From NCBI RefSeq assembly GCF_988243305.1, contig NZ_OZ547136.1: a stretch of 64,000 bases of DNA; one strand, written 5' to 3'. Shown piece after piece: positions 1-3,000 of the stretch. The first letter of the stretch is position 1. Every line of letters starts with the position of its first letter. Made by a program: the position numbers.

Positions 1-3000
1 GCTAAACATGAGAAAGAGCATACTGATATTTACTCCTCATGCCGTCTGATAGTGCGGAAAAACGGTGCTGAAATTTATAACCGTACCGCGCTGGATAATA
101 CGCTGATTTACAGTGGTGTTATTGATATGCCTGCCGGTCACGGTCACATGACACTGGAGTTTTCGGTGTCAGCATGGCTGGTGAATAACTGGTATCCCAC
201 AGCAAGTATCAGCGATTTGCTGGTTGTGGTGATGAAGAAAGCCACCGCAGGCATCAGTATCAGCTGAATTTTATAACCCATATACGGGCGCCAGAAATGG
301 CGCCTTTTTTATTGCAGAAAAGCGAGAGGTAATTATGCGTAAAGTTTGTGCAGCCATTTTGTCCGCAGCCATCTGTCTGTCCGTATCCGGTGCGCCTGCA
401 TGGGCGTCTGAACATCAGTCCACACTGAGCGCGGGGTATCTTCATGCCCGTACGAACGCTCCCGGCAGCGATAATCTGAACGGGATTAACGTGAAATACC
501 GTTATGAGTTTACGGACGCGCTGGGGCTGATTACGTCCTTCAGTTATGCCAATGCTGAGGATGAGCAAAAAACGCACTACAGCGATACCCGCTGGCATGA
601 AGATTCCGTGCGTAACCGCTGGTTCAGCGTGATGGCGGGGCCGTCTGTACGCGTGAATGAATGGTTCAGCGCGTATGCGATGGTGGGTGTGGCTTACAGC
701 CGTGTGTCGACTTTCTCCGGGGATTATCTCCGCGTAACTGACAACAAGGGGAAAACGCACGACGTGCTGACCGGAAGTGATGACGGTCGCCACAGCAACA
801 CGTCTCTGGCGTGGGGGGCTGGCGTGCAGTTTAACCCGACCGAATACGTGACCATTGACCTTGCTTATGAAGGTTCCGGTAGTGGCGACTGGCGAACGGA
901 TGCATTTATTGTTGGTATCGGATACCGTTTCTGACAACAGACGCCGATTTATCTTCTGTAAATATTGTTATGATACGCAGGTTCATCCACCTTATGGGGT
1001 GAACTGCGTTTGAGGAAACGTAAAGTTACACTGTCCTGAAGCCCGTGGCGTCACTGCTGCGGGCTTTTTTTATTGGTGGAAAAGTATGACAGTAAAAATT
1101 TCTGGCGTGCTTAAAGATGGCACAGGAAAACCAGTACAGAACTGCACCATTGTGCTGAAGGCCAGACGAACCAGCAGCACGGTGGTGGTGAACACAGTTG
1201 CCTCAGAAAACCCGGATGAAGCCGGGCGTTATACAATGGACGTCGAGTATGGTCAGTACAGCGTCAGTCTGTTGGTGGAGGGATTCCCGCCGTCACACGC
1301 CGGGACCATCACCGTGTATGAAGACTCACAACCGGGTACGCTGAATGATTTTCTCGGTGCCATGACGGAGGATGATGCCCGTCCGGAGGCACTGCGCCGT
1401 TTTGAAGTGATGGTGGAAGAGGTGGCGCGTAACGCGTCCGCAGTGGCACAGAACACGGCAGCCGCGAAGAAGTCAGCCGGCGATGCCAGCACATCAGCCC
1501 GTGAGGCGGCAACCCATGCGACTGATGCTGCAGGCTCAGCACGTGCAGCCAGCACGTCAGCCGGACAGGCCGCGTCGTCGGCTCAGTCAGCGTCTTCCAG
1601 CGCAGGAACGGCATCAATAAAGGCCACTGAAGCCTCAAAAAGTGCTGCTGCTGCAGAGTCATCAAAAAGCGCGGCAGCTACCAGCGCCAGTGCCGCGAAA
1701 ACGTCAGAAACGAATGCCGCAGCATCACAAAAATCGGCAGCCACTTCTGCATCCACAGCGACCACGAAGGCGTCAGAAGCTGCCACCTCGGCACGGGGTG
1801 CGGCGGCCTCAAAAGAGGCAGCGAAATCTTCAGAAACGAATGCATCCTCGAGCGCCAGCAGCGCAGCTTCCTCGGCAACGGCGACAGCAAATTCTGCGAA
1901 GGCGGCAAAAACGTCCGAGACGAACGCTAAGTCTTCTGAGACGGCAGCGGAACAGAGCGCCTCAGCTGCGGCAGGTTCAAAAACAGCGGCTGCATTATCT
2001 GCCAGTGCCGCGTCAACAAGTGCCGGGCAGGCCTCAGCCAGTGCCACCGCTGCCGGAAAGTCGGCAGAAAGTGCCGCCTCGTCTGCTTCAACAGCCACAA
2101 CGAAGGCTGGCGAAGCCACTGAACAGGCCAGTGCAGCAGCGAGGTCTGCTTCCGCAGCGAAGACATCCGAGACGAACGCGAAAGCGTCGGAAACCAGCGC
2201 AGAATCCTCAAAAACGGCTGCCGCATCGTCCGCTAGTTCGGCGGCGTCATCGGCATCATCGGCGTCAGCTTCAAAAGATGAGGCGACCAGACAGGCGTCA
2301 GCAGCGAAGGGCAGCGCCACGACAGCATCCACGAAGGCGACAGAGGCAACTGGCAGTGCGACGGCGGCAGCACAGAGCAAAAGTACGGCGGAATCCGCGG
2401 CAACGCGCGCCGAGACAGCGGCAAAACGGGCAGAGGATATTGCATCCGCCGTGGCGCTTGAGGATGCAAGTACGACGAAAAAGGGGATAGTACAGCTCAG
2501 CAGTGCAACCAACAGCACATCTGAAACGCTTGCCGCGACACCGAAGGCAGTTAAAGCAGCGAATGACAATGCGAATGGCAGGGTACCATCTAACCGAAAA
2601 GTTAACGGGAAAGCACTGACTGCGGATATAACATTAACACCGAAAGATATTGGCACTTTAAATTCAGTAACGATCTCTTTCTCTGGCGGGGCAGGGTGGT
2701 TCAAACTGGCAACGGTTACCATGCCACAAGCGAGTTCCATCGTTTACATCGCATTGATTGGTGGCGCTGGTTACAACGTCGGCTCCCCACAGCAGGCAGG
2801 CATTTCAGAACTGGTTCTACGAGCAGGCAATGGAAAGCCCAAAGGGATTACCGGAGCTTTGTGGAAGCGTACAGCCGTCGGATTAACGAATTTCGCCTGG
2901 ATCAACACATCCGGCGATACATATGATATTTACGTTGAGATTGGCAATTATGCGACGAGTGTAAATATCCATTGGGATTGTACTACAAATGCGTCAGTTT

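Follow-up and report, generated by a model that had tools for sequence, protein, structure and literature searches.

The side tail fibers of phage lambda are trimeric on the virion and bind the surface receptor OmpC, and parallel trimers with small core residues are known from the alanine-zipper coiled coils of Braun lipoprotein (Lpp-56) variants. In the fiber proteins of EHEC prophages, a segment named PCoil forms a reversible, cooperative, trimeric α-helical rod according to CD, SEC-MALLS and rotary-shadowing EM; it has an A-x-x-A/S-x-x-S period and its lengths differ by multiples of seven (Ghosh 2012, PMC3368898). In Ur-lambda, cryo-EM/ET and AlphaFold3 assigned gpStf residues 102–393 to a proximal trimeric coiled coil; an N-terminal domain is described as the gpStfN collar, and the proximal fiber segment is rigid in tomograms (Wang 2025, PMC12617516). 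Published work already covers the rod domain as such, its heptad pattern, its helical trimers and its length variation in seven-residue steps. Here, we compare with these systems a side tail fiber gene, stf, from a 64,000-nucleotide stretch of contig NZ_OZ547136.1 (assembly GCF_988243305.1), which we call the window. We conclude that aa 111–457 of its product very probably form a proximal rod of this kind, a parallel trimeric coiled coil that acts as a spacer and changes length by whole heptads.

Judged by its PfN domain, gene order, gp37-like tip and neighboring Tfa, stf is a lambda-type side tail fiber gene (Table 1), as the first-pass annotation had proposed. Pfam phage_tail_N (PF08400) matches aa 1–134 (E = 6.5e-71) and Collar matches aa 826–873. 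With lom upstream and tfa downstream, the locus follows the order J–lom–stf–tfa that closes the tail operon of lambdoid prophages; lom–stf–tfa occur in identical order in lambda KT232076 and in E. coli strain 600055, which carries a near-identical prophage with a full tail operon upstream. Among complete genomes, only NZ_CM129037.1 contains the entire stf at 99.9% identity, and its protein WP_115735219.1 is 99.9% identical to the window Stf. Many Stf homologues in the databases are marked ‘partial’. PDB matches fall on aa 1–94, 443–505, 731–826, 817–895 and 821–1042, outside most of aa 111–457, and no PDB structure matched the Ala/Ser-rich rod itself. In an alignment of relatives, the columns of the aa 443–505 segment are nearly invariant.

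Table 1 Features of the stf locus in the window (positions in nucleotides).
Feature	Position	Strand	Evidence
lom, Ail/Lom outer-membrane β-barrel, gene preceding stf	335..934	+	Pfam Ail_Lom, E = 2.9e-125
stf, side tail fiber gene, 1042 aa	1086..4214	+	ORF; Pfam; PDB matches
N-terminal collar domain, aa 1–94, putative fiber-to-tail attachment	1086..1367	+	phmmer: lambda tail fiber chains 9e7m/9mgh, E = 8.3e-49
Ala/Ser-rich heptad region, aa 111–457, very probable proximal coiled-coil rod (‘PCoil’)	1416..2456	+	periodicity, unbroken register, conservation, AF2 helix, literature
Antisense ORF, 385 aa, spurious	1583..2740	-	codon shuffle; stops in relatives
+1-frame ORF, 282 aa, Arg/Gln/Pro-rich, spurious	1642..2490	+	codon shuffle; codon-position variation
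AAKTSETNA unit, copy 1	1692..1717	+	family D1
15-heptad (315-nt) block, tandemly duplicated in relative L079	1695..2009	+	insert identity
AAKSSETNA unit, copy 2, left junction of 336-nt deletion in relative L003	1818..1843	+	family D1
AAKTSETNA unit, copy 3	1902..1927	+	family D1
AAKTSETNA unit, copy 4, right junction of 336-nt deletion in relative L003	2154..2179	+	family D1
Rod end and conserved segment, aa 443–505	2412..2600	+	Mu tail fiber protein S 5yvq, E = 6.8e-10
C-terminal tip, aa 821–1042, His-rich repeats, probable receptor-binding part	3546..4211	+	T4 gp37 tip 2xgf, E = 2.2e-78
tfa, tail fiber assembly chaperone	4214..4798	+	Pfam Caudo_TAP, E = 2.1e-44

Ala, Ser and Thr together account for 70–78% of residues in each 50-aa block between aa 151 and 450, compared with 20–45% elsewhere in Stf. 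The bounds of the periodic stretch, placed by a register-aware Viterbi scan, fit the low-complexity interval of 1450–2480 described in the first-pass annotation; it begins inside the last part of PfN and spans ~11–44% of gene length, an N-proximal location and not the ‘central third’ reported there. The stretch reads as one continuous run of ~49.5 degenerate x-S-A-x-x-A-x heptads (Ser at position 2 in 64%, Ala at position 3 in 60% and at position 6 in 79%), and large hydrophobic residues are very rare at all seven positions. Residue identity reaches 0.37–0.42 at lags 7, 14 … 56 as against ~0.16–0.25 at other lags (z = 7.6–10.6 for the seven-residue period relative to 500 shuffles), and each of the 26 best local self-matches has a lag of 0 mod 7, the top one being 18/21 identical at lag 154. 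Self-comparison, suggested earlier as a check for internal repetition, is thus positive. The register is single and unbroken across the whole stretch in the window and also in 69 of 70 relatives. Periods above seven were seen weakly at lags of 77 and 154 aa (z ~2.6–2.7 with a column-preserving shuffle), too weakly for us to claim a higher-order repeat, and this candidate was dropped. The meaning of the periodicity, a heptad coiled-coil rod, had been absent from the earlier reading; the explanation itself is published (PMC3368898, PMC12617516).

Comparison with lambda Stf, which is 79% identical over the whole of a 352-residue BLASTP alignment, places this stretch within the lambda-type architecture. 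The two genes share their position in J–lom–stf–tfa, the window collar domain matches the solved lambda N-terminal chain, and the proteins are colinear over aa 1–303, including ~190 residues of the Ala/Ser stretch, so the stretch itself is lambda-like. The heptad stretch of the window is longer than that of lambda by 15 heptads (105 aa, 315 nt), however, and aa ~500–820 are unrelated to lambda, in part resembling segments of the Mu S fiber. The tip is 63% identical to lambda Stf 530–774 but differs around aa 920–990. These results modify the earlier picture of a mosaic gene in which lambda-like termini flank a special Ala/Ser insert. Mosaicism holds for the gene as a whole, since of 58 relatives ~52–58 share the N-terminal half and 16 the C-terminal end, but the Ala/Ser stretch is no foreign insert, and the part that departs from lambda lies beyond it.

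The window rod also has close parallels outside lambda. Like PCoil in EPclA and EPclB, it directly follows PfN (phage_tail_N), is Ala/Ser-rich and of low complexity, contains A-x-x-A/S-x-x-S heptads and varies in length by steps of seven residues. By contrast, it is 347 aa long, whereas residues 101–245 of EPclA/EPclB are those scored highly by coiled-coil predictors, and it leads into Mu S-like and gp37-like modules, where EPclA/EPclB have a collagen Gly-X-Y domain and PfC. Further parallels are StfR of the K-12 Rac prophage and the remaining ‘prophage tail fiber N-terminal domain-containing proteins’. Records annotated stfR, among them the K-12-derived H83, H84, H86 and H88, align with nt 1380–2520 as one ungapped piece at 93.8% identity, and their heptad number therefore equals that of the window; the distal parts of these proteins differ. 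Relative to the Lpp-56 alanine zippers, the Stf rod comprises ~50 heptads and pairs Ala with Ser. An Ala/Ser core nearly devoid of Leu, Ile and Val is atypical for coiled coils.

Could the Ala/Ser/Thr stretch instead be an intrinsically disordered, flexible linker, with its seven-residue period a relic of duplication? Such a linker would be in keeping with the extreme composition bias, the scarcity of large hydrophobic residues and the lack of a solved homologue over the stretch, but it would lack constraint specific to heptad position. Across 26 distinct relatives of the same length, the variable columns at heptad positions 1–7 number 25, 3, 11, 24, 15, 5 and 27 of ~50; Ser at position 2 (3 of 49 columns variable) and Ala at position 6 (5 of 50) are nearly fixed, in contrast to ~25 of 50 at three positions. 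Two near-fixed, two intermediate and three free positions are the pattern expected for a/d, e/g and b/c/f. Moreover, an AF2 monomer model predicts a continuous helix over aa 98–475, with pLDDT mostly 70–86; this model folds back on itself in a hairpin at aa ~278–282 (residues 184–188 of the modeled segment) and is uninformative on the oligomer, and AlphaFold3 gave the same hairpin artefact on full-length gpStf (PMC12617516). Finally, the homologous PCoil is a helical trimer by CD and EM (PMC3368898), and the proximal segment is rigid in Ur-lambda tomograms (PMC12617516). We therefore regard a disordered linker as improbable.

In the coiled-coil model that we favor, each chain would be a continuous α-helix of ~49.5 heptads, and three chains would wind in parallel around a core built from the small residues Ala and Ser. 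By analogy with the homologues described in the literature (PMC3368898, PMC12617516), aa 111–457 would be trimeric. The rod would be ~50 nm long and would keep the C-terminal receptor-binding tip distant from the tail, to which the N-terminal collar domain would anchor the fiber. Its length in nanometers, its role as a spacer and the placement of position-2 Ser and position-6 Ala in the core are features that we infer or take from the literature.

Length differs among relatives, as the first-pass annotation had anticipated for unit number in related prophages, and does so in a manner consistent with this model. We took heptad lengths from the heptad-register Viterbi scan in place of the distance between the EEVARNA...GIVQLSS anchors, which was unmeasurable in 33 of 71 proteins because many have other distal modules. 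Lengths range from 32 to 452 aa, with 27 of 70 IMG/VR relatives at exactly 347 aa, the modal class. Indels relative to the window are 21, 42, 315, 315, 336 and 672 nt, the large internal ones being exact multiples of 21 nt; the exceptions to whole-heptad change are L015, which tolerates a four-residue (12-nt) insertion, and the more distant L010, with 9 nt. Two events can be traced to their junctions. First, the insert in L079 is a tandem duplication, sharing 98.4% identity with the neighboring sequence upstream of it and 90.8% with the corresponding 15-heptad block of the window. Second, the L003 deletion junctions lie exactly on two GCAGCGAA... (AAK[S/T]SETNA) units, 336 nt apart. We propose that rod length evolves as blocks of 1, 2, 15, 16 or 32 heptads are lost or duplicated by unequal recombination between in-register copies of motifs such as AAK(S/T)SETNA. 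Because changes comprise whole heptads between in-register copies, the helical register would never be broken. In-register indels might need no structural selection, however, because the similarity exists in register only.

The same variation could instead mark a contingency locus, in which frequent slippage or intragenic recombination within a hypermutable array would change the unit number and give rapid variation in fiber length or phase. The spread of length classes, the recent tandem duplication in L079 and the deletion between repeated units in L003 are what such a locus might produce, but the DNA itself contains little of the required repetition. Tandem Repeats Finder, run on 1000–4300 at its lowest score threshold, returned no tandem array covering the Ala/Ser stretch and only two arrays within it, of 26 nt each; no exact direct repeat exceeds 14 nt, and repeated 12-mers form just seven pairs. 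The DNA family D1 (GCNGCGAAAACGTCAGAAACGAATGC, encoding AAK[T/S]SETNA) has, in addition to the copies in Table 1, weaker copies at 1461 and 2175, and all copy spacings are multiples of 21 nt. The reiterated units noted in the first-pass annotation are thus real, but identity between heptad units is low at the DNA level, and the stretch consists of something other than high-identity, head-to-tail copies; we have dropped the description ‘tandem DNA repeat’. Of the earlier claim of a recombination-prone array, what survives is recombination between units, as in at least one length change that joins two AAK(S/T)SETNA units, and not a slippage-prone array. Among 5,426 complete genomes of E. coli, 3,576 (~two thirds) have a place that covers at least 80% of the stretch. 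Each of the sampled rows with full coverage aligns as a single ungapped piece, and identity at the best place is mostly 90–95%, indicating that length is stable while sequence diverges by 5–10%. Given also the modal length of 347 aa, hypermutability appears very improbable, and we reject an unusually long or assembly-inflated array in the window.

The low complexity of this DNA, its 21-nt period, its GC-rich codons and its long open runs in other frames are likewise explained by the heptad amino-acid pattern of the rod. The two long ORFs in other frames, whose exact coordinates and spurious nature were both given correctly in the first-pass annotation, are by-products of codon composition. Either one is almost certainly not a genuine overlapping gene, despite lengths of 385 and 282 aa, ATG or GTG starts and a +1 frame free of stops in 18 of 26 relatives, since shuffled stf codons yield equally long open runs in both frames (242 ± 73 aa versus 290 observed in the minus frame, with 31% of shuffles reaching 290; 204 ± 61 versus 278 in the +1 frame, with 14% reaching 278), the minus frame has 1–3 stops in each of the 26 relatives, and the translations, Arg/Gln/Pro-rich or Ala/Asp/Phe-rich, only mirror Ala/Ser codons. 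Variable nucleotide sites at stf codon positions 1–3 number 74, 58 and 220 of 347 in the 26 relatives, and this excess at position 3 gives no sign of a second constraint.

There are several implications. First, the stretch is real but ordinary, with a copy in most E. coli genomes, including stfR of K-12. Automated gene prediction and manual annotation alike should allow for long false ORFs on either strand here, and stf, being shared by several prophage copies, is a frequent breakpoint in short-read assemblies. Second, the rod of chimeric lambda-type fibers could be safely shortened or lengthened by whole heptads, for which natural block junctions, such as 1818/2154 and 1695/2009, would be usable engineering templates. 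Finally, the rods fall into length classes of ~5, 17, 31–35, 48–50 and 65 heptads (roughly 5 to 67 nm). It is conceivable, though in our judgment unlikely, that these classes are not neutral outcomes of recombination but reflect selection for a fiber reach suited to how thick the O-antigen or capsule layer of the host is, with the recurrent 15–16-heptad block as a structural quantum of an Ala/Ser-core coiled coil. If so, rod length would be a second determinant of host range beside the tip domain.

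The gene enclosing the Ala/Ser stretch is stf, which encodes the side tail fiber of a lambdoid prophage located in an E. coli chromosome; this identification follows from its Pfam and structure matches, its lom and tfa flanks and a 99.9% identical gene in E. coli strain 600055. In strain 600055, a complete lambdoid tail operon carries this gene at its end, with the trp operon and an ompW remnant alongside; the annotation there reads 'prophage tail fiber N-terminal domain-containing protein'. The window starts inside J, the gene for the tail tip, whose 3′ end it contains as an ORF fragment (52–267, + strand), so the prophage tail operon lies upstream of the window; a hairpin and T-run can be read at ~268–312, ahead of lom. 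Sequence matches to solved structures include no relative for Stf residues 95–442. At the fiber tip, a 27-nt tandem repeat (4071–4128; 2.1 copies, 83% matches) encodes His-rich HAHSVxIGx repeats that align with those of the T4 gp37 tip (2xgf).

Features of the side tail fiber gene, its encoded domains and its neighbors
Feature	Location	Strand	Detail
lom	335..934	+	upstream of stf; Pfam Ail_Lom, E = 2.9e-125
stf ORF	1086..4214	+	1042 aa; encloses Ala/Ser stretch
tfa	4214..4798	+	downstream of stf, one-base overlap; Caudo_TAP, E = 2.1e-44
Pfam 'prophage tail fibre N-terminal' domain	stf aa 1-134		E = 6.5e-71
Lambda Stf collar domain match	stf aa 1-94		tail structures 9e7m/9mgh, E = 8e-49
Phage Mu S fiber pieces	stf aa 443-505 and 731-826		sequence matches to solved structures
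Collar domain (Pfam)	stf aa 826-873
T4 gp37 fiber tip match	stf aa 821-1042		2xgf, E = 2e-78

Downstream, a 197-nt direct repeat (4622–4818 and 5671–5867, 90% identical) comprises the 3′ end of tfa and a truncated second tfa (ORF 5578–5847; Caudo_TAP, E = 6e-25). Encoded on the other strand, a class I SAM-dependent methyltransferase gene (4853–5521) separates the two copies; it resembles cargo that was inserted or captured between two modules for tail fiber assembly. Past the prophage end, ~6100–64000 is ordinary E. coli chromosome, with ORF sizes that fit the ompW remnant, yciEFG and trp operon at 26189–29364 of the strain 600055 relative (L082). That strain carries an IS1 between yciG and trpA that the window seems to lack, as the putative trpA ORF of the window, by its coordinates, is ~1.3 kb nearer stf.

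The first-pass annotation placed the Ala/Ser stretch between lambda-like termini as the non-lambda part of a mosaic, a reading that comparison with lambda Stf (774 aa, KT232076) overturns. Lambda Stf is colinear with residues 1–303 of the window protein, including ~190 residues of the Ala/Ser stretch, which therefore belongs to the lambda-like portion; BLASTP identity is 79% across the whole 352-residue alignment, with drift after residue ~303. The C-terminal 220 residues realign at 63%, whereas residues ~500–820 lack a lambda counterpart and the window Ala/Ser stretch is 315 nt (15 heptads) longer than that of lambda. Among 58 longer relatives, the N-terminal half is common to 52–58 and the tip to 16 only. 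From these alignments, the window Stf and its relatives form the usual tail-fiber mosaic of a conserved anchor and a variable tip.

The noted richness in Ala, Ser and Thr is evident, at 70–78% in every 50-residue block of residues 151–450 and 20–45% elsewhere in Stf. Self-comparison, the check on which the first-pass annotation staked its observation, confirms internal repetition, with identities of 0.37–0.42 at lags of 7, 14 ... 56 residues versus ~0.16–0.25 at other lags (z = 7.6–10.6 for lag-7n identity, 500 shuffles), and the 26 best local self-matches all fall at multiples of 7 residues. The pattern is a heptad, x-S-A-x-x-A-x, running for ~49.5 successive units in unbroken register; identity is also weakly raised at 11- and 22-heptad lags (z ~2.6–2.7). 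The reiterated units are real, with DNA copies at 1692, 1818, 1902 and 2154 and two more degenerate copies (1461 and 2175); the distances between them are in every case multiples of 21 nt. In its DNA, however, the stretch does not form a tandem array: TRF finds none covering it, no exact internal repeat exceeds 14 nt, and only seven 12-mer repeat pairs occur, always spaced by multiples of 21.

How the stretch varies was assessed in 26 distinct relatives in which it is likewise 347 residues long (pairwise DNA identity 82–100%, median 92%). Variable sites number 74, 58 and 220 of 347 at codon positions 1, 2 and 3 of the stf frame. By heptad position, with ~50 columns each, Ser at position 2 (3 variable columns) and Ala at position 6 (5) are almost invariant and are spaced 4 and 3 apart. 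The flanking positions 3 (11) and 5 (15), both most commonly Ala, are intermediate, and positions 1 (25, Thr/Ser), 4 (24, Thr/Ser) and 7 (27, Ala) vary freely. This pattern of two fixed, two intermediate and three free positions corresponds, as read from the alignment, to a/d, e/g and b/c/f of a coiled coil, although we infer which heptad positions form the core. The variation is thus that of a folded coiled coil and not of a spacer, a meaning of the periodicity that the first-pass annotation missed. An AlphaFold2 monomer model (34-sequence alignment) places a helix at residues 98–475, with pLDDT mostly 70–86; the model folds back once, a feature that is uninformative for a trimer and an artefact also reported for AlphaFold3 on full-length gpStf (PMC12617516).

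The alternative-frame ORFs at 1583–2740 (−) and 1642–2490 (+) are both present and, as suspected, spurious. GC content is 62% in the stretch versus 50% in the remainder of stf, and its codons have 67% C at position 2 and 49% G at position 1. In 500 stf codon shuffles, 14% reach the stop-free run observed in the +1 frame (278 versus 204 ± 61 aa) and 31% that in the corresponding minus frame (290 versus 242 ± 73 aa), which has 1–3 stops in every one of the 26 relatives. Together with the codon-position variation, these results identify both ORFs as by-products of composition.

Repeat number does vary among related prophages, as anticipated. In a register-aware Viterbi scan of 70 Stf homologues on IMG/VR contigs, the heptad stretch spans 32, 119, 127, 217, 234/235, 240/242, 333, 347 or 452 residues; the window length, 347, is the commonest class (27 of 70). 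Register is unbroken in all but L015, which has a 672-nt deletion and, near the rod start (nt ~1521, aa ~146), a 12-nt insertion; the four residues it adds match a classical coiled-coil discontinuity in size. A more distant relative, L010, has a 9-nt insertion nearby. Indels within the stretch measure 21, 42, 315, 315, 336 and 672 nt in DNA alignments, exact multiples of 21. The 315-nt insertion of L079 is a tandem duplication, 98.4% identical to its own upstream neighbor and matching window 1695–2009, and a 42-nt deletion in L069 fuses two GCCAC(T/C)TC sites. Because the 336-nt deletion of L003 fuses two GCAGCGAA... units (AAK(S/T)SETNA) at 1818 and 2154, the idea that reiterated units serve as recombination points holds for at least one event, but such events are rare.

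Strict multiples of 21 may reflect either chain register, with whole-heptad indels holding three chains in register, or recombination between motif copies that would be similar only in register. Large changes, compared in L003, L012, L035, L066 and L079, recur as 15-, 16- or 32-heptad blocks (315, 336 and 672 nt) at different places; this recurrence and the 11/22-heptad excess may reflect motif spacing alone or a structural quantum. In 3,576 of 5,426 complete E. coli genomes, a place covers at least 80% of nt 1380–2520, including records annotated stfR from K-12 derivatives. Within a sample of 60, each full-coverage match is one ungapped piece, and best-place identities are mostly 90–95%, so rod length is stable over 5–10% sequence divergence, which counts against a slippage-type contingency locus. 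Stf-like places number up to 13 per genome (median 2). Among the 120 database proteins nearest to Stf, most carry the label 'partial', and many come from 2–6 kb contigs; short-read assemblies appear often to break inside stf, consistent with the presence of several such places in one genome. The source name 'short-chain fatty acid transporter', given to three of the proteins (P0010, P0013, P0028), is evidently an error.

We propose a parallel coiled coil of three helices, its core built of small residues. A helix rises ~0.15 nm per residue, and 347 residues would give a rod of ~50 nm, ~15 nm beyond the lambda version. By analogy with Ur-lambda, for which a spacer and early-contact function has been shown (PMC12617516), this rod would act as a rigid spacer that pushes the tip domain outward, allowing the fiber to contact the cell surface ahead of the central fiber. 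The domain is already known, and all our findings fit its published descriptions. The name 'PCoil' for the low-complexity Ala/Ser stretch that follows PfN in E. coli prophage fiber proteins comes from Ghosh et al. (2012, PMC3368898), who described a seven-residue period (A-x-x-A/S-x-x-S), near absence of Leu/Ile and length differences in multiples of seven, and established a reversible trimeric α-helical rod by CD, SEC-MALLS and rotary-shadowing EM. Using cryo-EM/ET and AlphaFold3, Wang et al. (2025, PMC12617516) divided Ur-lambda gpStf into a collar (1–91), linker (92–101), proximal coiled coil (102–393), hinge (394–422) and distal domain. The first-pass observation is confirmed and its interpretation partly supported: repeats, variability and spurious ORFs were read correctly, and the stretch was wrongly taken for the non-lambda part and for an array. 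What we add is description: the rod's exact register and conservation profile, its length classes, the junctions mapped and how prevalent this length is.
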